DNA from: a phage
NCBI GenBank assembly: GCA_009015555.1
Contig: GCA_009015555.1_3613.1
Strand: one strand, 5' to 3'
DNA: 64,000 nucleotides
Shown piece after piece: positions 14,020-37,659 of this stretch (within the stretch, counting starts at the first letter, position 1; each line of letters opens with the position of its first letter). The position numbers and the translations under genes were made by a program. The notes under the pieces were generated by a model that saw only the letters and a list, made by a program, of their open reading frames with translations, had not been told where the DNA came from and made no database searches.

Positions 14020-14310
14020 TTACCAGTCCAGTTTGTCAGCGCGGTGGCAGATTGCCAGTCGTGCAGCGCCGAGTTCGTCGCCTTTGCCCAGCAGTATATT
14101 ATGGTCCCGCTGGAACTTCAACTCTTTTATCACATATTCGAGATGCGGTTCGAGTAAACTTACCAGCACCTCGGCCTTTTCCGGATGCAGGGTCTCAAAG
14201 AGATCCCAGCCTGCATCGAAGTTCTCTTCATCGTCGGTGAAGAACTGCTCGCGTAGTTCCGGCGACATGATGTGGAACAAAAGGTGAGAGTATCGGGTAT
14301 TTTTGCTCAT
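14020..14310 (-). CDS. hypothetical protein (96 aa)
   Basis: Track ORF. Confidence 0.5.
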   Translation of the reverse strand: MSKNTRYSHLLFHIMSPELREQFFTDDEENFDAGWDLFETLHPEKAEVLVSLLEPHLEYVIKELKFQRDHNILLGKGDELGAARLAICHRADKLDW

Positions 14311-14483
14311 CAGCTACGACTCTTATGCAGAAGGCCGATGATGGCAGCACCCAAGACGCCGAAGCCCAGACCAATACCGAAGGCCCCTGTCAGCCCAGCG
14401 TTCGCCAGTACCGCTGCACAACCGCTAATCATGGACATGATGCCGATGATAAATGCTTTTTCGATGGTAGATACCTTTTTCAT
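14310..14483 (-). CDS. small glycine-zipper lipoprotein (57 aa; lipobox ISGC)
   Basis: ATG with RBS GAGGAGAG; stop overlaps next start; not in track (<60 aa). Confidence 0.45.
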   Translation of the reverse strand: MKKVSTIEKAFIIGIMSMISGCAAVLANAGLTGAFGIGLGFGVLGAAIIGLLHKSRS

Positions 14484-14537
14484 TCTTCTCTCCTCTGTTG
14501 TTTGATAGGACCCATCATACAGGGTCCTGTGTCAATG

Positions 14538-14996
14538 TCAATCGTTTTCGAAAGCATTTAATGCCTGAAGCTCTTTCCAGGCGGCAATCCATGCCTGCTT
14601 TATCTTGGCGTACTCTTTAGGATGAGCAACTTCCAGTAATCGAAGCTCGTCCCGAGTTACGTGCCTGTCGTCCTCGAAGAACTCCATAGCCTCATCAGAG
14701 AGGTAAGCCGTAAAGACGATCTCTTTGAACTTTATCGTCCTGTTCCTCGACGTCGGAGGATCTACGATGACCTGGGTTCCAGTTGTTGTGATAGTCGGGG
14801 CCGGGGTATTCATGACCTCCCTCATAATCCTTTCCCACTCCCGGGCCTTGATATCGGACGGGGAGGGGGTCCAAGGTTGGTGAATGTTCGGCGGGATGTT
14901 GCCATCCCCAATTCTCCACGGCCCGCCAATCCCAGTTGTCTCATTACCCATCAATGAAGAATTGATGTGTTCCTTCAGGCTCTTATGTTCACTCAT
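14538..14996 (-). CDS. paralog family member (Gly-rich N-terminal part; C-terminal ...KQAWIAAWKEL)
   Basis: Track ORF; shared motifs with neighbours. Confidence 0.55.
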   Translation of the reverse strand: MSEHKSLKEHINSSLMGNETTGIGGPWRIGDGNIPPNIHQPWTPSPSDIKAREWERIMREVMNTPAPTITTTGTQVIVDPPTSRNRTIKFKEIVFTAYLSDEAMEFFEDDRHVTRDELRLLEVAHPKEYAKIKQAWIAAWKELQALNAFEND

Positions 14997-15435
14997 TTGG
15001 CATCATCTCCCCTAAATCAAAGGCTCGGTACGCCTGGCGTTTGTTCCACTCTTCCGCCCAAGCATCCCGGATCGATTTCCACTCGGACTCATCCACCACC
15101 TTGATAAAAGAAAGTTCGTCCCCGTTCAATTGGGTAGCATCATCAATCATGGCAAAGGTTTCTGGTTTCAAGCGGACCTTGAATGCAAGCCCGGCATACG
15201 ATAAAACATAAAGCTCTGTGCAGATACCCATAGGCCCAGGTGTCCCGCACACCCCGGACACCCCCATATCCCCTCTTGGTCCCAACATCCCATTTACCCC
15301 CATCACAACCCCGGTAGTTGCGTCGTAACGCAGTTCGTTCAACTGCGCCGCCCTCAGTTCATCATTAGCGCTTCGCTTTTGGCCCATTGAATTTCTCCAG
15401 CAACAGTTTATCGGCTTCGTCCAAAGCCCCAGCAA
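14989..15435 (-). CDS. paralog family member with collagen-like tract (GVNGMLGPRGDMGVSGVCGTPGPMG)
   Basis: Track ORF; WAEEW motif; start uncertain. Confidence 0.5.
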   Translation of the reverse strand: MLGLWTKPINCCWRNSMGQKRSANDELRAAQLNELRYDATTGVVMGVNGMLGPRGDMGVSGVCGTPGPMGICTELYVLSYAGLAFKVRLKPETFAMIDDATQLNGDELSFIKVVDESEWKSIRDAWAEEWNKRQAYRAFDLGEMMPNE

Positions 15436-15838
15436 AGAGAGGCACCATTGGGGAAAGATCTGCGTACAGCATCTCGAACATCGCCACCTCTCCTTCGTCC
15501 ACGTTGTGCGTGTCTAAGAAGATTTCTTCAATAGACAGACGTTCGGTATCTCCTCGCCCAAAGGCATGATAAACCAAACGATCACCCTTCTCAGGGCAGG
15601 TTCTCCACTGAAGAAGGCCACTCATGCTCTTAGTCCACAACCGCAGGTCCCCGTTCTTCATCTCGTGACGCATGGTAAACTCCCGGACGGTATTCGGCCC
15701 GGTGGGGACTTCGATAGTCAAACCTCGGAACTTACCTTCCAACTTGGTCACTACTTGGCGTCGAACAGGATCATCCATAACGGCCTTCCAACTCCAATCC
15801 CGAGCCAGCCTCTCAATTACATCTTTGATTTCACTCAT
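15365..15838 (-). CDS. paralog family member (motif EVAMFEMLYADL)
   Basis: Track ORF. Confidence 0.55.
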   Translation of the reverse strand: MSEIKDVIERLARDWSWKAVMDDPVRRQVVTKLEGKFRGLTIEVPTGPNTVREFTMRHEMKNGDLRLWTKSMSGLLQWRTCPEKGDRLVYHAFGRGDTERLSIEEIFLDTHNVDEGEVAMFEMLYADLSPMVPLFAGALDEADKLLLEKFNGPKAKR

Positions 15839-16359
15839 TATTTATCCTTCGTTGGGAAAAATACAGACAGGGTATTGGAACCCGCCGCCTTATCGAGTTT
15901 TCGGGTGACGCCGAAGAACTCCCGATTCATATCTATGAGCATTTGCTCGTCGCCGTAAAGCATCTGGAACATATCCAACTCTTCAAATGTCGGACGCCAA
16001 GGGTCGTCAAACATCTCCGATAAATGAGTCTTTACACCGTCACACTCGTAAGTGCAGGAGTTTTCAGTGACTACCAATCTGGCCCGGAGACCTTTTATGC
16101 CAATGCCGGGGATCTCTATGCTCGCCAGATCTCCTGTCTCAGGGTCGATATTCGCCTTTACCATCTTGTCCATCTCCCAAGAAGAATCCATCTTGGTTTT
16201 GAGGTAGAACGAGGCCCGGCTGTCTATATCTATCCCTCTCTCCACCCGATGCTCAAGGAACTTGAAGAAAACTTGGTGTTTCAGCCAGTGGTTCCACCCG
16301 ATCCAGCGAGCACCCTGCCCAAATACCTCACGGGTAATTTCTTCTTGGCTTTTTCTCAT
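15838..16359 (-). CDS. paralog family member (motif ELDMFQMLYGDE)
   Basis: Track ORF. Confidence 0.55.
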   Translation of the reverse strand: MRKSQEEITREVFGQGARWIGWNHWLKHQVFFKFLEHRVERGIDIDSRASFYLKTKMDSSWEMDKMVKANIDPETGDLASIEIPGIGIKGLRARLVVTENSCTYECDGVKTHLSEMFDDPWRPTFEELDMFQMLYGDEQMLIDMNREFFGVTRKLDKAAGSNTLSVFFPTKDK

Positions 16360-16834
16360 AGTAGTCTAACTCCCACTCGTCAAATTCTTCTTTGGCCCTT
16401 TCGATTGCCCACTTTTCCGCCCACTGCTCCCTAAACGCTTTAAATTCATCCGGATAAGTCATCTGGAAGAATGCCATATCCTCCTTGGTGAGGGCATACT
16501 GGTTAAAGAAGAGAGCCTTTATGTCCTCTTCTGAATATAATGTAACCGAAATTCCCTTCCAGATCAACTTGGATTCGATAATTTCTTTCGGCGGTTCGTA
16601 TGATCCGCTGTGACCCATCGGTCCTCCCGGCGCACCTAAGTTTGCCCAACTCCCGTGCATCCACATATACAGAACACCCCCGATGATATAGGTGTCGCCG
16701 TGGTTTGCCGTCAAGGGTAGATTGGTCACTGATTGCAATGACCCTTGTATCACCATATTTTGTGTCGCAGCAGGGAAAAGGCCGGGAGACGTTGAATACG
16801 GGTTAGATACATTACCAGTGTTAAAATTTGCCAT
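16328..16834 (-). CDS. paralog family member (GAPGGPMGHSGS; EDMAFFQMTYPDEFKAFREQWAEKW)
   Basis: Track ORF. Confidence 0.55.
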   Translation of the reverse strand: MANFNTGNVSNPYSTSPGLFPAATQNMVIQGSLQSVTNLPLTANHGDTYIIGGVLYMWMHGSWANLGAPGGPMGHSGSYEPPKEIIESKLIWKGISVTLYSEEDIKALFFNQYALTKEDMAFFQMTYPDEFKAFREQWAEKWAIERAKEEFDEWELDYYEKKPRRNYP

Positions 16835-28515: not shown

Positions 28516-28803
28516 TTACAGTTCGCCAATGTCGAAATCGCCAGCTTCAACGACCTCTTTTTCAGACTCGAAATGAGCCACTAACTCAGTGTACCCGCCG
28601 ATGTACCGATCGTCAAGGAAAATCTGCGGCACGGTAGCAGCAGGTCGTCCAGTCGCATCTTTCACCCAAGCGTTCATTTGCATAAAGAACACTTCGTCCT
28701 CTAAAACATCCTTGTATGTGAACTCCAACAGTTTTGACTGGAGAAGCTCCTTGGCCCGTACACAGTACGGACAGTTTTCCTTGCCGAAGACCGTAAAGTA
28801 CAT
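28516..28803 (-). CDS. glutaredoxin/NrdH-like redoxin (CPYC)
   Basis: FGKENCPYCVRAKELL; adjacent to RNR genes. Confidence 0.8.
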   Translation of the reverse strand: MYFTVFGKENCPYCVRAKELLQSKLLEFTYKDVLEDEVFFMQMNAWVKDATGRPAATVPQIFLDDRYIGGYTELVAHFESEKEVVEAGDFDIGEL

Positions 28804-29030
28804 CAAACCTCCACAAACATAGCCAGTACCGGGGATTTGGCGTCGAAATAATCGACATGTGCTTCCAGCGGGCCGTGATTTTCAAAAGTGCCCAGCGTAT
28901 GAGGGATACCCTCTGCATCATACACCAGATTCAGATCTTTGCTGTATTTGTACACCGAGCCAGCCTTGAACGGATTGTTCATGGATTTGGCAACCACCTT
29001 GCAGTACAAATCTTGTAGGTCTTCCATCAT
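28803..29030 (-). CDS. hypothetical protein (75 aa)
   Basis: Track ORF. Confidence 0.5.
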   Translation of the reverse strand: MMEDLQDLYCKVVAKSMNNPFKAGSVYKYSKDLNLVYDAEGIPHTLGTFENHGPLEAHVDYFDAKSPVLAMFVEV

Positions 29031-29248
29031 TCCTCCACAATTTCAAAAGTCGCCACAATGGCGCTGTCTTCATCACAACAAGCGGCACGGACCGTAACCC
29101 CATCTGGTTCCAATTCCCAGTTGTGATCAGTCTCGTCTATGGAGTCGTTGTCAGCAACACCATACTCCAAATCTGCCCCGTACACCTTTCCGACGGTGAA
29201 GAACTTTCCATACCCATTGCCAACGGTCTTACATTTCAGCTTTGCCAT
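29027..29248 (-). CDS. hypothetical protein (73 aa)
   Basis: Track ORF. Confidence 0.5.
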   Translation of the reverse strand: MAKLKCKTVGNGYGKFFTVGKVYGADLEYGVADNDSIDETDHNWELEPDGVTVRAACCDEDSAIVATFEIVEE

Positions 29249-29257
29249 AAAACCTCC

Positions 29258-30355
29258 TTACAGGTCCATATTGAAATCTTCGGCAGACATAGAGGAATCA
29301 ACCTGGCCGGACAGATACTGACCGTTCTCGGTTTCCTGCGGTGTTACCTGCACATTACCGGTATTCAGGTGGCTGTTGATCCAAGGGATTGGGTTCTTGG
29401 TCGGTTTTCCGATCAGTTCACCAAGGCCAACCGCCCGCATACGTTGATCTGTGATGTAGTCGATGTAACCGTCCAGCATACCTTTGTTCAGACCGATCAT
29501 CGAACCGTCTTTGAACAGGAAGCTGCCCCAGTCTTTCTCCTGCACCGATGCGTCGATAAAGCCCTGTCGTGCCTCTTCGTAGCAATCCTCTGCTACACGA
29601 GCAAACAGATCACCTTCGTTACCGTTCTGCATTTCTTTCAGCATATACTGGGTGCCGGACAAATGCAAGGCTTCATCACGGGCAATCAGTTCAATAATGT
29701 TGGTGTTGCCCAGCATTACCCCGCGCTCGCCGAACGCAAATGAGCAGGCGAAGCTCACGTAGAAGCGGATCGCTTCCAGTGCGTTGATATTGTGCAGGCA
29801 CAGGTACAGCGCACGGGCATGAGTGTACGGGTCAACCGGAAGGTTTAGGGCCTTGCGGCAGTTCAGTTCGTACAGGTCATCATACATCTTCGTCACCGCC
29901 TCGGCGCGGGCGATAATCTCCGGCGACTTCATGATGTCGTCAAAGACGATCGACGGATCTGCCAGGATGTTACGGATGATATGGGTGTATGAGCGAGAGT
30001 GGATAGTCTCACTGAACGCCCAAGTCTCGACCCATGTTTCCAAGGTTGTGTCGGACACGATCGGGAGCAGAACTGCGTTCGGCCCACGGCCCTGTACAGA
30101 ATCCAGAAGGATCTGGTACTTCAGGTTGCTGATGAAGATGTGCTTCTCGTGATCCGGCAGATTCATGTAGTCGATACGGTCACGGGTCACGTTAACTTCT
30201 TCCGGACGCCAGAAGAACGCCAGTTGCTTCTCGATCAGCTTCTCGAACTTGGCGTGTTTCTGCTGGTCATAACGAGAAACGTTCGGTGTCTCGCCGAGGA
30301 ACATCGGCTGAGTCAGGAAATCGAATTTGTTCTGGTTGAAAGTGCTGTAAGACAT
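29258..30355 (-). CDS. nrdB: ribonucleoside-diphosphate reductase beta subunit (class Ia)
   Basis: Full-length R2 homolog; start at ATG with RBS AAGGAG (track ORF extends to 30388). Confidence 0.95.
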
Positions 30356-30425
30356 TGTTTTCTCCTTTTCTCTAAACTTGCGGTCCATTATACGGATGCC
30401 GGACCAAGTGTCAATACCCTAAGAC

Positions 30426-30450
30426 AGAAAAACCGCCCCGAAGGGCGGTT
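30426..30450 (-). terminator. rho-independent terminator
   Basis: ACCGCCC-TTCG-GGGCGGT with flanking T-runs. Confidence 0.5.
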
Positions 30451-30452
30451 TA

Positions 30453-30623
30453 TTATTTGAGGATCTTCTGCATGTCACGGTAGATCGCTTTGTGGTCACG
30501 ACACGAGCACAGATTCACCTTGTATGCGTTGTTGATGAGAGTCTTCTTCTCCAACGGCCCATACGTCTTGGTCCAACTGATCATCCGCCAGCGGCGATAG
30601 ATGAACCACCATAACACAGTCAT
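30453..30623 (-). CDS. small hypothetical protein (W/R-rich)
   Basis: Track ORF 30453..30659; weak. Confidence 0.3.
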   Translation of the reverse strand: MTVLWWFIYRRWRMISWTKTYGPLEKKTLINNAYKVNLCSCRDHKAIYRDMQKILK

Positions 30624-30631
30624 ACTGCCCC

Positions 30632-32890
30632 TTACAGTTTGCAAGCCCCGCCGCCGCAACCATCGTCTTCCTGATCGTTGCCGTCTTTGGTCTCTTGGTA
30701 ATACAGAGTCTTCAGTCCGTGTTTATACGCCCACATAATGTCACGCAGCACGACCTTGATCGGCAGCTTTCCGCCCGGGAAGTCCCACGGCTTGTAGAAC
30801 GTATTCGCCGATGCCGCCTGGTCGATGAACTTCTGCATGATTGCCACGAGAGTCAGGTAAGGAATAGGCGAAGCCATGTCCCACTTGTACTCGTAAACCA
30901 CACTTGGGTCACCTACCCCCGGCACCAACACTGGCAGCATACCCGCTCCGGATTTCTTGAAGGAAATCGCATCACGAGGTGGCTCAAAACCATTCGTGGA
31001 GTTAGTGATCTGGCTGGATGTCTCGCAAGGCATCATCGTGGACAGCGTGGAGTTACGCAGGCCATGAATCGCGATATCGACACGCAGCTTTTCCCAGTCC
31101 ATCTTCAGTTCCGCAGTGTGGAGAGCATCCACCTCTTTTTTGTAACGGTCGATCGGCAGAATGCCCTGAGAGTAAGTGGTCTCGTGGAAGAGATCACATT
31201 TGCCCAGTTCTTTTGCCAGGTCAACCGACGCTTCCAGTAGGTAATACTGGAATGCTTCAGCCAGTTCGTGAACAGCGTTAGCTGCACGAGGGTCGCTGTA
31301 CTTCATCCCGCGCTTCGCCAGGTAGTACGCGAGGTTGGTCCAGCCAATCCCCAGTGTACGGCGCAGCTTGGTCTTCTCTGCCGCCAGAACCGGGTAGTTC
31401 TGATAGTCCAGCAGTCGGTCCAGAGCACGAACCAGTGTACGGACAGGCTCACGCATGTCTTCCGGCTTCTCGATCTTGCCAAGGTTAATGGCAGACAGAG
31501 TACACAGGGCTACCTCGCCCGGGTCTTCTGGATCGTTAATGTCGTTGATCGGATGCGTCGGCAGCGCGATCTCCATACACAGGTTGGACTGCTTCACCGG
31601 GGCCTGTTTAGGGTCAAACGGGCTGTTGGTATTACAGTGGTCAACGTGCTGAACATAAATACGACCAGTTTGTGAACGCTCCTGCCCAAAGACAGAGAAT
31701 GCGTCCGCCGCAGGGATAGACTTCTTCGCCACGGAAGGATCTGCTTCCAGTTCCTCGTAAAGCTGTTGGAATTTCTCCTGATCAGAGAAGAAATATTCGT
31801 ACAGCTTACCGCCAGCCACGTTCGGGTGGAACAACGTGATGTTCTTGCCCTGCTGGAGGCGGGTATAAAGCAGCTTGTTGATCTGGAGGCCGTAGTCCAC
31901 ATGGCGAGCACGAGTGCTCTCGGTGCCACGATTGTTCTTCAGAACGATCAGGCTCTCAAAATCCCAGTGCCACATCGGGTAGAAATAGTTAGCCGATGCC
32001 TTACGGACGCCGCCCTGAGAGGTCCACCCAAGAGACTCTTGGTACATGCGGACAATCGGCACGGTGCCTGCGTGTTTAACCTCACCACCACGAATGGCAG
32101 AATCCTGACCACGAATCATGCCGAAGTTCAGGCCGATCCCGGCTCGTTGAGCCGCATATTTACCCTGCGCCGTGTTGGCGTTAAAGATCTGGTCGATATT
32201 ATCACCAGACTCAATCAGTACGCAAGAGCTAAACTGACGGGTCGGGGTACGAACACCCGCCATGATCGGGGTCGGTAAAGACACCTTCATCAGCGATACG
32301 TTCTCGTACAGGTCAACAATACGTTCCAGACGGGTCTTTTTGTCTTCCTGTGACAACAGGCCCATTGCAATCAGCATCAGCGCCATCTGAGGGGATTCAT
32401 AAATCTCCCCGGTGACGCGGTGCTTGACCAGGTACTTGTCTTCGTACTGACGCATTGCTGCGTAAGTGTAATCGAAGTCGCGGTCGTGAACGATCTTGTC
32501 ATTCAGGAAAGCAATCTCATCACGGGTGTAATCGTCCAGCAGGTGGCGGTCGTACTTGCCGTTGCCCACGTTCAGATAAATCTGATGGAACAGATCGAAC
32601 GGCTGGAAATCACCATATGCCTCTTTGCGGATCTTGAACAGCAGCAGTCGTGCAGCAGCGTACTGGTAATCCGGATTCTGAACACTAATCAGGTCGGATG
32701 CCGCCTTAATCAGGGTTTCGTGGATGGCCTTTGTTGTTACTCCATCGAACATTTGAATCTGGGCTTTCATAAGGATCTCTGATGCACACACATCGAGACC
32801 TTCACATGCCCACTCTACCACACGGTTAGCCTTCTCGGCATCGAACTTCTCTGTCGCGCCGGAATTTTTTACAACATTAATGCTGGTCAA
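30632..32890 (-). CDS. nrdA: ribonucleoside-diphosphate reductase alpha subunit (class Ia), TTG start
   Basis: 752 aa R1 homolog; C-terminal CGGGACKL; RBS GGAG upstream of TTG. Confidence 0.95.
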   Translation of the reverse strand: MTSINVVKNSGATEKFDAEKANRVVEWACEGLDVCASEILMKAQIQMFDGVTTKAIHETLIKAASDLISVQNPDYQYAAARLLLFKIRKEAYGDFQPFDLFHQIYLNVGNGKYDRHLLDDYTRDEIAFLNDKIVHDRDFDYTYAAMRQYEDKYLVKHRVTGEIYESPQMALMLIAMGLLSQEDKKTRLERIVDLYENVSLMKVSLPTPIMAGVRTPTRQFSSCVLIESGDNIDQIFNANTAQGKYAAQRAGIGLNFGMIRGQDSAIRGGEVKHAGTVPIVRMYQESLGWTSQGGVRKASANYFYPMWHWDFESLIVLKNNRGTESTRARHVDYGLQINKLLYTRLQQGKNITLFHPNVAGGKLYEYFFSDQEKFQQLYEELEADPSVAKKSIPAADAFSVFGQERSQTGRIYVQHVDHCNTNSPFDPKQAPVKQSNLCMEIALPTHPINDINDPEDPGEVALCTLSAINLGKIEKPEDMREPVRTLVRALDRLLDYQNYPVLAAEKTKLRRTLGIGWTNLAYYLAKRGMKYSDPRAANAVHELAEAFQYYLLEASVDLAKELGKCDLFHETTYSQGILPIDRYKKEVDALHTAELKMDWEKLRVDIAIHGLRNSTLSTMMPCETSSQITNSTNGFEPPRDAISFKKSGAGMLPVLVPGVGDPSVVYEYKWDMASPIPYLTLVAIMQKFIDQAASANTFYKPWDFPGGKLPIKVVLRDIMWAYKHGLKTLYYQETKDGNDQEDDGCGGGACKL

Positions 32891-32908: not shown

Positions 32909-33139
32909 TTACTTAGCTTCAGGCTTTTTGACTTCGTACTGCTCAACATCTTCCTCGGAAGCCGCACCGAGGCGGATTGTTTTACCGGAGTACGGGTCGT
33001 GGTACGTATCGTCGTAACCCATCGACTCATCACACAGGTCGTTGAACTGCAACCAGCCAATGTACTCGGCTTTGCTTTGGAAGCCACGTTTGAACCACTT
33101 AGTCTGCTCGTCCGGAACAGCATTGTTTTTCTTTGCCAT
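32909..33139 (-). CDS. hypothetical protein (76 aa)
   Basis: Track ORF. Confidence 0.5.
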   Translation of the reverse strand: MAKKNNAVPDEQTKWFKRGFQSKAEYIGWLQFNDLCDESMGYDDTYHDPYSGKTIRLGAASEEDVEQYEVKKPEAK

Positions 33140-33141
33140 GA

Positions 33142-33636
33142 TTACGCTCCTTTCACCAGGTTGAAGATATCATCCATGTCGTCGAACTCTGGCAGGTCCA
33201 TGACAACAACGTCGCTACGATCCTCGCGTTTGGTGTACTTGCGGGTGTTGACCTTTTCCACAGATGGGATGTCGAACGCCAGGGAGTTCACCAGTGCAGC
33301 ACCCACGGCGCTGTTTACATCGAGGACATCTACTTTATCATAAATCCCCACGAACGGGAAGTCACGTTCATCACGCAGACGACCTGAGAAAATGGTTGTC
33401 GTGCGGAACATGTAAGGCTTATCAGCACATCGGACATTTACGCCGTCCATGCGGTCAATCTTGCATGGGACGTACAGACCAGTCTCTTCATTCAGGACAG
33501 AGACCTCAAATCCGATCAGGTGCAACACTTGGCGAAGAGTTTCCTTTTTCTTCATGTCCTTTCCAAGAAACTTTGCACACTCGACAATGAAATCCAGAGT
33601 CACAGAGCCATATTTAATATTTTTACCGAAAGCCAT
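33142..33636 (-). CDS. hypothetical protein (start at ATG with RBS GAGGAG)
   Basis: Track ORF 33142..33657. Confidence 0.5.
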   Translation of the reverse strand: MAFGKNIKYGSVTLDFIVECAKFLGKDMKKKETLRQVLHLIGFEVSVLNEETGLYVPCKIDRMDGVNVRCADKPYMFRTTTIFSGRLRDERDFPFVGIYDKVDVLDVNSAVGAALVNSLAFDIPSVEKVNTRKYTKREDRSDVVVMDLPEFDDMDDIFNLVKGA

Positions 33637-33717
33637 TCTACATCTCCTCGTACACAAATTCCGGGGCCAATGCCCCGGTCATAACAGAATAGGGTAAGGT
33701 TACTTCTTTGTCAAACT

Positions 33718-34764
33718 TTATTTAGCAAAATTGCTCAGGTTGTACCCACCAACTGCAACATGGCCCGGGATTAGCTGGCGATGCTGGATAAATCCCTTGA
33801 AATTGCCCGACCAGAAGTTTCCTTCGCGATCGACGTGCGTGATCCCTTTCTCCCAAGAGGATGGGCACCATGCCGCATTCAGCAACTGGCTCTCTGGGTA
33901 CTCACAATCATCAACCGTCTCTTCAATTTCACGACCCTGGTGTTCGAATGGAGAGGCATGTACCTTCTTCCCGGCAACCAGACGGGTGTAGATGTCCAGA
34001 GCCTTGTCCTTGGTGCTGTCCAGACGGCGATAGCTCACCTGACCACAACAAGAGGCAGAGATGCGGAGCGCCTCTTCTTCTGTCAGCATTACCGGGCGGT
34101 CATTTTCATCCAGAACGCAATAGCCTTCGAAGATGTGTGCGTCACCCTCCGGCCCGAAACCGTACACGTGGTCAACATACGGGGTGTGCCATACGCCCGC
34201 CGGGAGCCACTCCGGCTCGGAGTTATCCATCGCCTCCTTCATGAGGTTAGCCAGAACCTCGATCGTTGGGTCTGCATCAGCATCGACACGAAGCCACAGG
34301 AAGTTTTCCATTTCCGTTGTGGTCATGACCGTCTTCATCATCTGGAACGGTTCGATCAGACGGTTAGCGATCTGCTTGTGGAATTTGGCCTCTTCAAAAG
34401 CCAGTGCCACTTCGCAGGCGCGATCAGCCGCCTCGGCCCATGCGTCGCGCCCAGTCATTCCCTGCTCGTACTGCGGCAGGTAAACCAACGCATCATGCTC
34501 AACACCCTTGTCCTGCATACCCGGCTGGTTGGAGCCGAAGCGGACTGGCATTGCCATGTTTTCACGAATCAGCTTCACCATCGTCTTGATCGGTACAGCG
34601 CGAGATGACATCGCGTTACGGCTGAACAGTCGGTGAGTCATGAACTCACTGTGGATGATGCGAGGGTAAGTCAATTCAAAAGTCGTGATACGACCACTGC
34701 GCTGCCCCACAGAATCGGCGATGATCTGAACTTCGATATTGCCACGACTAAATACCTGACCCAT
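33718..34764 (-). CDS. thyX: ThyX-like flavin-dependent thymidylate synthase homolog with C-terminal extension
   Basis: ThyX-like motif THR-LFSRNAM-SSR (canonical RHR-x7-S-x-R) and preceding FELTYPRIIHSEF block. Confidence 0.6.
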   Translation of the reverse strand: MGQVFSRGNIEVQIIADSVGQRSGRITTFELTYPRIIHSEFMTHRLFSRNAMSSRAVPIKTMVKLIRENMAMPVRFGSNQPGMQDKGVEHDALVYLPQYEQGMTGRDAWAEAADRACEVALAFEEAKFHKQIANRLIEPFQMMKTVMTTTEMENFLWLRVDADADPTIEVLANLMKEAMDNSEPEWLPAGVWHTPYVDHVYGFGPEGDAHIFEGYCVLDENDRPVMLTEEEALRISASCCGQVSYRRLDSTKDKALDIYTRLVAGKKVHASPFEHQGREIEETVDDCEYPESQLLNAAWCPSSWEKGITHVDREGNFWSGNFKGFIQHRQLIPGHVAVGGYNLSNFAK

Positions 34765-34778
34765 AAAATCTCCTTTTA

Positions 34779-34982
34779 TTACTTCAACTTACGAATTTTG
34801 TAAGGAACAACAACATCATGCCTGACGGCAAGATACAAGTCAAGCATCTCCTTGCACATATCCTGCGTCACCCTGAAAGAAGTGAGCAGGTCTCCCTGCT
34901 CCGTTCTTACCTCAATATGCTCCCCGTATCGGACAACATATCGACCTTTTCCGCAACGCATTACAGGTTTTCCAGCAACCAA
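34779..34982 (-). CDS. hypothetical protein (67 aa)
   Basis: Track ORF. Confidence 0.4.
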   Translation of the reverse strand: MVAGKPVMRCGKGRYVVRYGEHIEVRTEQGDLLTSFRVTQDMCKEMLDLYLAVRHDVVVPYKIRKLK

Positions 34983-35572
34983 TCAGCGATTTCTTTCCAG
35001 TCCGCTGAAGTTAAGTCGTAATTGATGCGTGGCTCAACATCCTGACTGAAAGGCGTGTCGAACTTGATCTTAATCACGTCGTCCGGGAATTGATTCAGGA
35101 ACTGGTTCCGATCGTCAATGATTACCCCTCCAGCGACGCCCGCTTTAACCTTTGTGGCATAAAAACCGCTGCCGTCTGTCCCGTTGTCGAGATCAAGGAA
35201 CGGACAATGACGCTTCAGGAATCGTACCTTGCTGCTGAAGTGCCCCTTCTTGCAGTAAGATACGAAACGAATCGGGTGCCCGGCCTCGTGCAAACGACGA
35301 ATTGCATCCACTGCCCCGGCAATCGGCGTCATCTTGTCGTACAGATGAGGATCTTCCCAAAACTCATACGGCTCAATCGCCTCTTTGCAACGAGTCGGGA
35401 AGTATTTGGAGAGGTTGTAATTGAACAACCCCTTTTCCTCATAATCCTTGTCCATCAAATCAACGTCCGCAGGGATTTGATAGACACTTTCCATCCAGTA
35501 AAGCCAAGGCCACCCTGAATCAACGAACGTCAGATCTACATCTACCAGGATCGGGGTCTTAGTGAATGACAT
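34961..35572 (-). CDS. HAD-family 5'(3')-deoxyribonucleotidase-like protein
   Basis: ILVDVDLT N-terminal motif; start at ATG with RBS GGGAG (track to 35608). Confidence 0.5.
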   Translation of the reverse strand: MSFTKTPILVDVDLTFVDSGWPWLYWMESVYQIPADVDLMDKDYEEKGLFNYNLSKYFPTRCKEAIEPYEFWEDPHLYDKMTPIAGAVDAIRRLHEAGHPIRFVSYCKKGHFSSKVRFLKRHCPFLDLDNGTDGSGFYATKVKAGVAGGVIIDDRNQFLNQFPDDVIKIKFDTPFSQDVEPRINYDLTSADWKEIADWLLENL

Positions 35573-36218
35573 ACAGGTCGCTCCCTTTACAGTCTTGCAC
35601 AAAATCACAAATCTTACGGACCGTGCCGTTCAGATCGCCTTCTTCGTTCAGGATGTCAGTTTCATACATCCGAAGATGTTCAGGAAACTCTTTCGCATAG
35701 ATATATCGGCGAGAATCCCCATCGAAATTGTACTCCGTGCCATCTTTTTTCAGACGGTGGATTCGGACAAGGAAATAGTTGTCCGGGCCAACCACATTCA
35801 CAACCGGGATCGACTCCTCTAAGAAGCCCCCGTCGCTGACCACAACTACCAGTTGCACGTCTGCCGGGGTTTCATCCTTCAGCTTTTGCAACTTGGCGGC
35901 AAATGCCTTACCAAACACATCATTCCCAAATGTGGGCTTCATGATGTTCTCGGAGCAGTGGATCATCCAGTCACGAGGGCTGACGTTTACGCCGTTGATC
36001 TGGAGATACGGGCACGGCTTCTCTTTGTACTCACGCTCATACAGAGCGAACCACAGCTTACGGCTCAGGCCGGATGCCCGGATAGCGATATCGAACAGAA
36101 GTTCCTTGAACTCCATGTGGACGACTTCAAACCCCGGGGTGTTGATATAGCTGTGGAGACCTTCGCACAGTGCATCTTTTCCCGCGCCCGCCGGGGCATT
36201 CAAATTAATCAGAATCAT
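35559..36218 (-). CDS. P-loop nucleotide kinase (dNMP kinase-like)
   Basis: P-loop NAPAGAGKDA; start at ATG with RBS GGGAG (track to 36245). Confidence 0.55.
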   Translation of the reverse strand: MILINLNAPAGAGKDALCEGLHSYINTPGFEVVHMEFKELLFDIAIRASGLSRKLWFALYEREYKEKPCPYLQINGVNVSPRDWMIHCSENIMKPTFGNDVFGKAFAAKLQKLKDETPADVQLVVVVSDGGFLEESIPVVNVVGPDNYFLVRIHRLKKDGTEYNFDGDSRRYIYAKEFPEHLRMYETDILNEEGDLNGTVRKICDFVQDCKGSDLYVIH

Positions 36219-36529
36219 TAGTGCTCCCACTCCTCTCTGTACCATTTTGGCATAGGTGCCAAATAACCATTCACACGCTCAAGTTCGTTAAGGATCTTCT
36301 CTGCCGAACTTAATTTTGTAAAGCGGCGGAGGGTCTTCCACCCCTTGTAATGAACCGGGAGTTCAAAACACTCATAAGAGCCTTCGCAATACCTGAACTC
36401 TTGAACCCGATACTTAAAGAAATAAGCTCTCGGGTCGTACTGGATTCGATATTTGAACTGATCGCCATTATCCCGATGCGCCTGCTTTTTGTCAAGGGCC
36501 TTTTTCATTTCTTGGGAGATGAACATCAT
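36218..36529 (-). CDS. hypothetical protein (103 aa)
   Basis: Track ORF. Confidence 0.5.
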   Translation of the reverse strand: MMFISQEMKKALDKKQAHRDNGDQFKYRIQYDPRAYFFKYRVQEFRYCEGSYECFELPVHYKGWKTLRRFTKLSSAEKILNELERVNGYLAPMPKWYREEWEH

Positions 36530-36576: not shown

Positions 36577-37659
36577 TTACAGAATGTTCGCCAGCGTTTT
36601 CTTCATCGCTGCCTTCTCACGAACGTTCTGGCGGTCACGGGCACAAGACCCGCATTCCTGACAACGGTACACCTTAAATTTGGACAGGAAGGTGTGGGCA
36701 GATTTGCCTTTTTCTTCCACCAAGTCGTCGGAACCGCAGCGTACACATCGCATCACAGACTGATCCGGGTGGAACAGGGCAATGTTAGGGTGCTTACGCA
36801 TAAACGGACGAACGGTCAGGTACAGTTCTTCCAATGTCGGGATATCCCCGATGTTGTACTCTTCCATTTCGTCGAATGCCGTAGGATCACCTTCCACACA
36901 GCGACGCCACAGACCGAATCCTTCGTGAGACAACTTACGGCTGTCCAGTTCGAAGTAGTTACACGCCGCTTCCAGTGCATTGGAAGGCAGAGAGAACGAC
37001 TCCTTCAGTGCCGCCAGTGTGTCGATCGTGATATATGGGCTTGGCGGTTGCATACCGTAATATGCGAAACGCTGGTTGGCCCAACCACGGTCGAAACGGG
37101 CGTTGTGTGCAATGAAGATATCACACTCGTCAAGGACTTGCCAGAGATCCTGAATCAGTTTTTTATCCGACTGATGATCCCGTTTGAACTCTTCCGGGTA
37201 GTCGGTCAGTTTACGACTGAAGATGGACGGGTTGTGCAGCCACTTCCCGGCGAACGTCAGCATGTACGGCTCTTGAATAACCTGCTTCGGCGCGATGAAT
37301 TGCTTGAAGCGACCAAACGAATAGGCGATGCTCGGAGAGGTCTCGACATCACCAAGGAACACTTTGGCACCCGGGTTATTTTCCTTCACCTTTTCGATGA
37401 AGGTTTTCTGGATCTCTGCCAGCGTTTTACCACCATTGACTTCCTGCTGCATAAAATCAGCGTACTCATCTGGTGTTGGGATACTGTCAATCAATTGTTG
37501 GACAGTTTCCAGATTACGTGCTTCCAGTTCACGCTTCAGCATGTTGCGTACAGTTGACTCTTGAGATTCCTTGCCCAGTTGACGGGCTACCTCGCGCTGG
37601 GACAACCCACCCTTCATCAGAGCCATAACCTGTTCAACAGTAAAAGTCACATTAGCCAA
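36577..37659 (-). CDS. DEDD-family 3'-5' exonuclease with N-terminal HTH and C-terminal zinc ribbon
   Basis: FLGDVETSP, IFIAHNARFD, YNIGDIPTLEELY motifs; CVRCGS...CQECGSC. Confidence 0.7.
   Translation of the reverse strand: MANVTFTVEQVMALMKGGLSQREVARQLGKESQESTVRNMLKRELEARNLETVQQLIDSIPTPDEYADFMQQEVNGGKTLAEIQKTFIEKVKENNPGAKVFLGDVETSPSIAYSFGRFKQFIAPKQVIQEPYMLTFAGKWLHNPSIFSRKLTDYPEEFKRDHQSDKKLIQDLWQVLDECDIFIAHNARFDRGWANQRFAYYGMQPPSPYITIDTLAALKESFSLPSNALEAACNYFELDSRKLSHEGFGLWRRCVEGDPTAFDEMEEYNIGDIPTLEELYLTVRPFMRKHPNIALFHPDQSVMRCVRCGSDDLVEEKGKSAHTFLSKFKVYRCQECGSCARDRQNVREKAAMKKTLANIL

Follow-up and report, generated by a model that had tools for sequence, protein, structure and literature searches.

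Here, we analysed a stretch of phage DNA of 64,000 nucleotides (contig GCA_009015555.1_3613.1 of the NCBI GenBank assembly GCA_009015555.1; the whole stretch is called the window) and identified in it a gene on the minus strand, at 33718..34764, for a ThyX-like protein in which a conserved segment that precedes the catalytic core of known ThyX enzymes is found behind this core. It is most likely that the product is a flavin-dependent thymidylate synthase (FDTS) which makes ordinary dTMP (deoxythymidine monophosphate) from dUMP (deoxyuridine monophosphate). Based on sequence comparison and a structural model, we assign this reading a probability of about 0.7.

In the proposed reaction, dUMP would be reductively methylated to dTMP with methylene-tetrahydrofolate as the carbon donor, and reduced flavin would serve as relay and reductant as in the canonical ThyX reaction. 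The enzyme would top up the supply of deoxythymidine triphosphate alongside the adjacent phage-encoded ribonucleotide reductase (RNR), glutaredoxin, deoxynucleoside monophosphate (dNMP) kinase and 5'-nucleotidase. Substrate, product, cofactor and oligomeric state are all putative. The initial annotation of this gene had described an individually divergent ThyX-like protein with a C-terminal extension of about 120 residues, whose product could be either dTMP or a modified nucleotide.

Fold and segment order

Profile searches assigned the protein to the ThyX family. It scored 34.5 bits against Pfam Thy1 (PF02511; gathering cut-off 24.8), with residues 28-184 aligned to positions 60-190 of the 191 in the profile, and matched the PHROG 85 "thymidylate synthase" profile over residues 13-337 (E-value 5.3e-104). 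A phmmer search of the PDB with the single protein sequence gave nothing at E <= 1, and ThyX chains were the only matches when the family profile was searched against PDB sequences. An AlphaFold2 (AF2) monomer model, built from a family alignment of 133 sequences, reached a predicted local distance difference test score (pLDDT) of 94.6 and a predicted TM-score (pTM) of 0.92. Comparison of this model with the PDB by Foldseek returned ThyX-family chains for all of the top 50 matches, with target TM-scores of 0.41-0.59; the ThyX-like methylase PolB was found among them at rank 47. A fold search of BFVD yielded members of the family and further ThyX-like proteins of phages, and nothing else, and the product belongs neither to the fold nor to the sequence family of ThyA. 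We consider the predicted ThyX fold as established by profiles and model, since Pfam Thy1, PHROG 85, the PDB profile search and the AF2 model with Foldseek all pointed to ThyX, in agreement with the thymidylate-synthase-family fold proposed in the initial annotation. About half of the modelled protein superposes on ThyX in sequence order. In the BFVD search, phage "ThyX-like" proteins of 300-370 residues from crAss-like, Gordonia and Mycobacterium phages matched only weakly (TM-score about 0.3); they could represent additional variants of the ThyX architecture.

In canonical ThyX, strands beta1-beta2 are followed by the alpha1-alpha2-HxSPFEH segment, beta3 and the RHR motif, whereas in the phage subfamily the helical segment comes after the core, so that the HxSPFEH segment (residues 234-276) lies C-terminal to residues 28-184 and the order is not collinear with that of ThyX. 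The stretch KKVHASPFEHQ (residues 266-276) resembles HGHETPFEH of Thermotoga maritima ThyX (TmThyX; residues 51-59), which is located there ahead of RHR. In the hmmsearch of PDB sequences, the family profile and the chain of TM0449, the T. maritima enzyme, were aligned in non-collinear pieces (216-266 with 31-79, 27-56 with 73-102 and 138-177 with 172-211). Comparison by hhalign with a canonical ThyX alignment, composed of homologues of the T. maritima enzyme, gave two separate matches, one between residues 234-276 and TmThyX 20-60 (probability 91.9, E-value 7e-7) and one between residues 28-184 and TmThyX 63-199 (probability 84.9, E-value 6.4e-6). When the profile was re-ordered by placing 190-277 before 26-184, a single alignment over TmThyX 20-199 was obtained (score 89, probability 97.9, E-value 5e-13), in which the new junction PFEHQ/ITTFEL paired without a break with PFEHI-VFTFHV. 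The model agrees with this assignment: helices 229-242, 252-264 and 271-275 correspond to alpha1, alpha2 and the PFEH turn of ThyX, and strands 4-7 and 10-20 lead straight into the equivalent of beta3 (25-34).

The protein is indeed about 100-130 residues longer than ThyX, close to the figure given in the initial annotation; this is, however, not a simple extension, as residues 234-276 are relocated elements of the ThyX core. Both the rearranged segment order and the family-wide nature of the features had been missed there. Across the family, the beta-rich insertion after the WHxPY motif comprises 14-46 residues and the variable section of the tail 12-58 residues. When the C-terminal halves of ten proteins were scanned on their own with Pfam, Thy1 was not matched, and the relocated segment is detectable solely by profile methods. 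Nothing significant was obtained when the N-terminal 27 residues, residues 185-233 and residues 277-340 were compared with ThyX and with each other, or when the halves were compared as internal repeats; the best lead, between GFIQHR in the tail and RQWFRHR of TmThyX (E-value 0.31), was taken as noise.

A simple circular permutation is unlikely, because two N-terminal strands still precede the core and because the 195-236 insertion is only 14 residues long in short members. The route may have been either the transposition of a segment or a tandem duplication with complementary loss. We found no description of a permuted or rearranged ThyX in the literature searched, in which the rearranged topology and the altered motif of the family appear to be undescribed. 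Chances are about even that the family is a real and hitherto undescribed third architectural form of thymidylate synthase, namely a naturally permuted ThyX that occurs in model phages, among them ICP1 and N4-like phages.

Active site and probable product

To compare the active sites, T. maritima positions were mapped through the hhalign alignment and residues were counted in both alignments (133 members for the family). The following TmThyX residues have identical or similar counterparts in the phage protein (family conservation in brackets): S30 as S244 (100%), H53 as H269 (100%), T55 as S271 (98%), E58 as E274 (96%), H59 as H275 (99%), H79 as H44 (100%), R80 as R45 (82%), S83 as S48 (91%), N85 as N50 (96%), S88 as S53 (99%), R90 as R55 (100%), R147 as R135 (99%), N169 as N154 (99%), L173 as L158 (98%) and R174 as R159 (100%). 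Among these, the catalytic or substrate-activating residues H53, S88, R90, R147 and R174 are retained in 99-100% of the members. On the other hand, ten positions at which the canonical set does not vary are replaced throughout the family: R28 by Q, R74 by S or A, Q75 by E, R78 by T (T43; 97%), E86 by A or S, Y91 by A (A56; 100%), E144 by Q, N163 by T, R165 by T and H178 by D or A. The active-site comparison suggested in the initial annotation had two sides, with catalytic counterparts kept and other canonical positions replaced. The motif THR-LFSRNAM-SSR with Thr for the first Arg, as reported there, is present (T43-H-R to S53-S-R55). The full RHRxxSxxxxSxR(Y) pattern is absent, and its His, second Arg, both Ser and final Arg are retained. 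Presumably, R74 and R147 bind phosphate in TM0449 complexes. As judged from the alignments, the overall pattern suggests that the catalytic centre is conserved within remodelled phosphate and flavin-adenosine surroundings.

We favour dTMP as the product because the counterparts of TmThyX S88, R90, R147, R174 and H53 are conserved, because the family co-occurs with genes for deoxycytidine monophosphate or triphosphate (dCMP/dCTP) deaminase and RNR in unrelated phages, because searches of this phage type revealed no second thymidylate synthase, and because the DNA of its relatives (CB7 and Vequintavirinae) is restriction-sensitive. With respect to co-occurrence, nrdB and nrdA lie immediately downstream of the ThyX-like gene in Pseudomonas phage REC, nrdA is located near the ThyX-like gene (gp193) of ICP1, and a dCTP deaminase gene is found 2 kb upstream of the ThyX-like orf59 in the N4-like phage Bp4. 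In roseophages, strict co-occurrence of thyX and dcd has been reported for four genera (PMC11934525). The annotation of the whole genome of the relative PcCB7V contains no ThyA, dihydrofolate reductase, dUTPase or dCMP/dCTP deaminase. Similarly, tblastn searches of the window and the PcCB7V genome with Escherichia coli ThyA, Dut, FolA and Dcd and with T4 Cd gave a best E-value of 0.4.

Several observations weigh against this assignment. The score against the NCBIfam thyX equivalog (TIGR02170) was 30.7 bits, below the cut-off of 87.9. R165, N163 and H178, which we take to contact the ADP part of the flavin in TM0449, are all replaced, and cofactor binding may differ from that of canonical ThyX. 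We infer, from sequence only, that R35, H193, R246, N321, Q327 and R329, which have no ThyX counterpart, might take over the lost contacts. In T. maritima ThyX, R78, R80, S88 and R90 are among the residues that form hydrogen bonds with dUMP (Basta 2012, PMC3498832). One of these four is lost, with Thr for R78, and the Tyr that follows SxR is always Ala. The data on restriction were obtained for relatives of this phage (CB7 and E. coli Vequintavirinae) and would not reveal a small modification such as 5-hydroxymethyldeoxyuridine (5-hmdU) at all sites. Moreover, no biochemical demonstration of dTMP synthesis by any member of the subfamily was found in the literature.

One alternative starts from the exocyclic methylene intermediate formed by ThyX (discussed in PMC8989533), whose capture by water could yield 5-hydroxymethyl-dUMP, so that ThyX-type flavin chemistry would release a non-canonical pyrimidine nucleotide. 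If so, the dNMP kinase and the nucleotidase encoded next to it would direct a product of this kind into phage DNA. This possibility is consistent with a nucleotide pocket in which R78, Y91, E86, Q75 and R74 are systematically replaced, with the score below the TIGR02170 cut-off and with the position of the kinase and 5'-nucleotidase genes next to the ThyX-like gene; the same pairing of genes is also known from phages that remodel nucleotide pools. However, hypermodification genes (those for 5-hmdU kinase and aGPT-Pplase, and glycosyltransferase clusters) are not among the PcCB7V annotations, and the known phage pyrimidine hydroxymethylases in the cited literature have the ThyA fold. The DNA of the Certrevirus CB7 can be digested by restriction enzymes: BglI cuts it, and Dam methylation accounts for the pattern obtained with ClaI (PMC7344957). 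Vequintavirinae, which carry homologues of 55-60% identity, were described as "exceptionally susceptible" to restriction-modification systems (PMC8594841), and this sensitivity argues, by analogy, against a protective thymidine modification that blocks restriction. In addition, dCMP/dCTP deaminase accompanies the family, whose members are the sole candidates for a thymidylate synthase in these genomes; if the enzyme made a product other than dTMP, the phages would therefore be wholly reliant on host ThyA for T. Of the two products named in the initial annotation, dTMP is hence the favoured one and a modified nucleotide, together with its channelling into DNA, appears improbable.

The remodelled pocket (R78T, Y91A, R74S/A, E86A/S, R165T and H178D/A, with R329, H193 and R246 as new residues) might also reflect a chemistry or substrate use unlike that of canonical ThyX. 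There are several possibilities, including another flavin or reductant, another phosphorylation state of the substrate, and the release of 5-hydroxymethyl-dUMP or a C5 adduct in some phages, although we consider a departure of this kind equally improbable. The incomplete classical RHR...SxRY motif and the low equivalog score would fit as well with a relic of ThyX that has lost its catalytic activity or has been repurposed, such as a nucleotide-binding regulator or a scaffold of the complex for deoxynucleoside triphosphate synthesis. This is very improbable: the counterparts of R174, R90, S88, H53, R147 and N169 are conserved at 99-100% in the 133 members of a family with thousands of clusters, inteins target exactly the conserved motifs, and over 1000 genomes from many phage lineages have kept the gene. 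The near-invariant motifs in 4841 clusters and the inteins at conserved motifs speak for selection for function.

Distribution, locus and neighbouring genes

By tblastn, homologues were detected in 1035 phage records, of which 967 cover at least 80% of the protein. Among the phages with a homologue are the Vequintavirinae and phi92-like phages (55-70% identity), Vibrio phage ICP1 (52%), Pseudomonas phages of the PAK_P1, PaGz-1 and Otagovirus types (46-50%), N4-like phages, with Bp4/G7C and roseophage EE36phi1 as examples (36-40%), and Caulobacter phages of the phiCbK type (32%). Large protein collections contained 5127 homologues at 90% clustering, and 4841 clusters at 50% identity, 1229 of them with E <= 1e-30; almost all homologues are 290-350 residues long. 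On these sequence data, the subfamily (N4 gp30-like, PHROG 85) is apparently very large and phage-borne.

A motif census was carried out on 150 representatives of the family. The strict motif pattern occurred in 113 of them, as THR in 110, RHR in two and KHR in one, and HxSxxEH was present in 133 of the 150. We rejected the view of THR as specific to this phage, since it is the norm, and the protein is not individually "divergent" as initially described, because both THR (T43 in 97% of the 133 aligned members) and the architecture are common to the whole family. Residues H44, R55, A56, M83, R159, H193, P195, S244, H269 and R329 are invariant in the 133-member alignment, and S18, R35, E40, T43, S48, N50, S53, S54, W109, H129, K130, Q131, R135, E138, T150, N154, L158, S236, R246, S271, E274, H275, N321 and Q327 are conserved in at least 90% of the members.

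Approximately 10% of the 150 representatives contain inteins, in which Intein_splicing is combined with an HNH or a LAGLIDADG domain and which extend these proteins to 520-680 residues. The carriers, all outside the window, are the homologues P0135, P0137, P0143, P0145, P0155, P0169, P0173, P0208, P0209, P0247 and P0254. Six insertion sites were observed, after H38, R45 (directly behind THR), F47, S53, R159/A160 (behind LR) and H269 (behind the His of HxSPFEH), and all of them are inside or beside conserved motifs, which makes the family an intein hot spot. These insertion sites mark functional motifs of the ThyX-like family.

The 3.5 kb around the ThyX-like gene shares 97.4% identity with Cronobacter phage CR3, a Certrevirus of the Vequintavirinae, and 81-97% with about 20 further phages of Cronobacter, Pectobacterium, Enterobacter and Klebsiella. 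The CR3 counterpart, CR3_219, is annotated as "putative thymidylate synthase". Because of the 97% identity of the surrounding region to CR3 and the 5127 protein homologues, the predicted open reading frame (ORF) is a conserved gene and not a chance ORF. Its ATG is located 14 nucleotides downstream of the stop codon of the preceding gene, as read from the sequence. The C-terminal residues, about 11 in number (..VGGYNLSNFAK; 33718-33750), are not common to CR3 or PBES 02, whose proteins both have 337 residues, and the CR3 version of the aligned 3.5 kb is 33 nucleotides shorter. The form of 348-349 residues is present elsewhere, in the homologue P0001 (93% identity, 100% coverage). This variable C-terminus starts past R329, the last conserved residue.

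In the gap that separates the ThyX-like gene from the following ORF (33142-33657), a sigma70-like site (TTGACA, 17 nucleotides, TATTCT; 33714-33686, minus strand) was observed just 3' of the stop codon, followed by a perfect hairpin of 7 GC base pairs (CCGGGGC-ATTG-GCCCCGG; 33678-33661, minus strand) with a weak T-tract. Conserved sigma70-like promoters near nucleotide-metabolism genes have been reported for Certrevirus (PMC7344957).

Coordinates of the gene, its segments and its neighbours are listed in Table 1. The 5'-nucleotidase, P-loop kinase and RNR genes that the initial annotation had placed next to the ThyX-like gene were recovered by Pfam PF06941, PHROG 139 and the NrdA and NrdB translations, and the block of NrdA, NrdB and glutaredoxin genes (28516-32890) lies downstream of the ThyX-like gene. 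A Pfam scan of the four small ORFs among the nucleotide-metabolism genes gave no matches.

Table 1. Positions of the ThyX-like gene, its protein segments and neighbouring features in the window
Feature	Position	Strand	Remarks
ThyX-like gene	33718..34764	-	ORF, 348 residues and a stop codon; homologous to CR3_219 and N4 gp30; PHROG 85
Shine-Dalgarno sequence AAGGAG	34770..34775	-	read from the sequence; 5 nucleotides upstream of the ATG at 34764
Two N-terminal beta-strands	34705..34755	-	residues 4-20; DSSP of the model; no significant ThyX profile match
Catalytic core	34213..34683	-	residues 28-184; collinear with T. maritima ThyX 63-199
ThyX signature T-H-R-LFSRNAM-S-S-R	34600..34638	-	residues 43-55; Thr for first Arg; A56 where ThyX has Tyr
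NFLWLR	34288..34305	-	residues 154-159; counterparts of ThyX N169, L173, R174
Invariant WHxPY (H193, P195), then beta-rich insertion	34081..34212	-	residues 185-228; no ThyX match
Relocated alpha1-alpha2-HxSPFEH segment	33937..34080	-	residues 229-276, corresponding to ThyX 20-60
HASPFEH	33940-33960	-	residues 269-275
Subfamily-specific tail	33721..33936	-	residues 277-348; variable part and conserved C-terminal motif; no ThyX match
C-terminal motif SGN321..GW.Q327.R329	33778-33810	-	conserved across the family alignment
Small conserved ORF	34779-34982	-	PHROG 4903
NT5C-type (HAD superfamily) 5'-deoxynucleotidase-like protein	34961..35608	-	Pfam PF06941, 1.7e-8, 35 bits (cut-off 24.8); PHROG 420
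P-loop dNMP kinase	35559..36245	-	PHROG 139 at 5.9e-44; "dephospho-CoA kinase" in PcCB7V
Small conserved ORF	36218-36529	-	PHROG 15820
Small conserved ORF	33142-33657	-	PHROG 5557; 171 residues; between ThyX-like gene and nrdA
Small conserved ORF	32909-33139	-	PHROG 5488
NrdA, class Ia RNR alpha subunit	30632..32890	-	translation; annotation of CR3_216 and PcCB7V
NrdB, RNR beta subunit	29258..30388	-	translation; annotation of CR3_215
Glutaredoxin-like protein, CPYC motif	28516..28806	-	translation; CR3_212; "glutaredoxin 1" in PcCB7V

Two further observations concern the surrounding genes. An exonuclease domain of the RNase_T/DnaQ-like type (Pfam PF00929, 7e-7) is present in a protein of 360 residues (36577-37659, minus strand), which is labelled inconsistently: its name is "putative DNA polymerase 2" in CR3, whereas PcCB7V has "exonuclease". 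The NrdB gene is annotated with 2064 nucleotides in PcCB7V (14304-16367) and has 1131 in the window. Introns and inteins have been described in nrdA and nrdB of CB7 (PMC7344957), and the RNR genes of the window appear to be without them, so that the content of mobile elements differs within the genus.

Significance and comparison with known systems

For this phage, the result is an expected phage thymidylate synthase, with no good sign of an exotic DNA chemistry. More broadly, over 1000 sequenced phages, among them N4-like phages, ICP1 and therapy phages of the PAK_P1 type, contain a ThyX lineage in which the flavin- and folate-binding segment is transposed, and this lineage lacks R78 and Y91 (TmThyX numbering), which are invariant in the canonical alignment. 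If it is a natural active variant, it would test which contacts of ThyX are essential, in an enzyme that is both a mechanistic oddity and an antibacterial target. The rearrangement and the replaced residues explain why these genes escape TIGR02170 and single-sequence searches and why their annotation alternates between "thymidylate synthase" and "hypothetical protein".

Canonical ThyX/FDTS (T. maritima TM0449, Mycobacterium tuberculosis ThyX, Helicobacter pylori ThyX and PBCV-1 A674R; PF02511, TIGR02170) has solved chains of 216-270 residues, compared with 348 in the phage protein. The additional residues of the latter, about 120 and absent from canonical ThyX, form two variable insertions and the conserved C-terminal SGN..Q.R motif. 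The phage protein differs in three tested features that define canonical ThyX: it scores below the equivalog cut-off, its RHR..SxRY motif is incomplete and its segments are not collinear.

The proteins of PHROG 85, such as N4 gp30, ICP1 gp193, CR3_219 and CB7_206, have the same length, motifs and architecture, with full-length matches at 36-97% identity, and orf59 of Bp4 has been annotated as similar to N4 gp30. The copy in the window differs from CR3 chiefly in the last 11 residues or so and in nothing else of substance. By sequence, the gene is an ordinary member of the N4 gp30-like family, and so it is already known as a gene. We found no biochemical or structural study of the PHROG 85 family in the literature, in which its annotation is by homology only.

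PolB (PDB 4P5A/4P5B), the ThyX-like C5-methylase of polyoxin biosynthesis that acts on uridine monophosphate (UMP) and dUMP, has 226-229 residues, which is about the length of canonical ThyX. It belongs to an antibiotic-biosynthesis context in Streptomyces and scores below bona fide ThyX as a match to the phage protein. A ThyX-fold methylase that acts on a substrate other than dUMP, either UMP as in PolB, a di- or triphosphate, or nucleic acid, is somewhat less probable than the already improbable release of a modified nucleotide.

Finally, the ThyA-family dUMP and dCMP hydroxymethylases of phages (T4 gp42, SPO1 and M6/ViI) also add one carbon at C5 of the pyrimidine and are sometimes flanked by kinase genes. 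They are the precedent behind the modified pyrimidines considered in the initial annotation, but their fold and mechanism, with covalent Cys catalysis and no flavin, are unrelated to those of ThyX.

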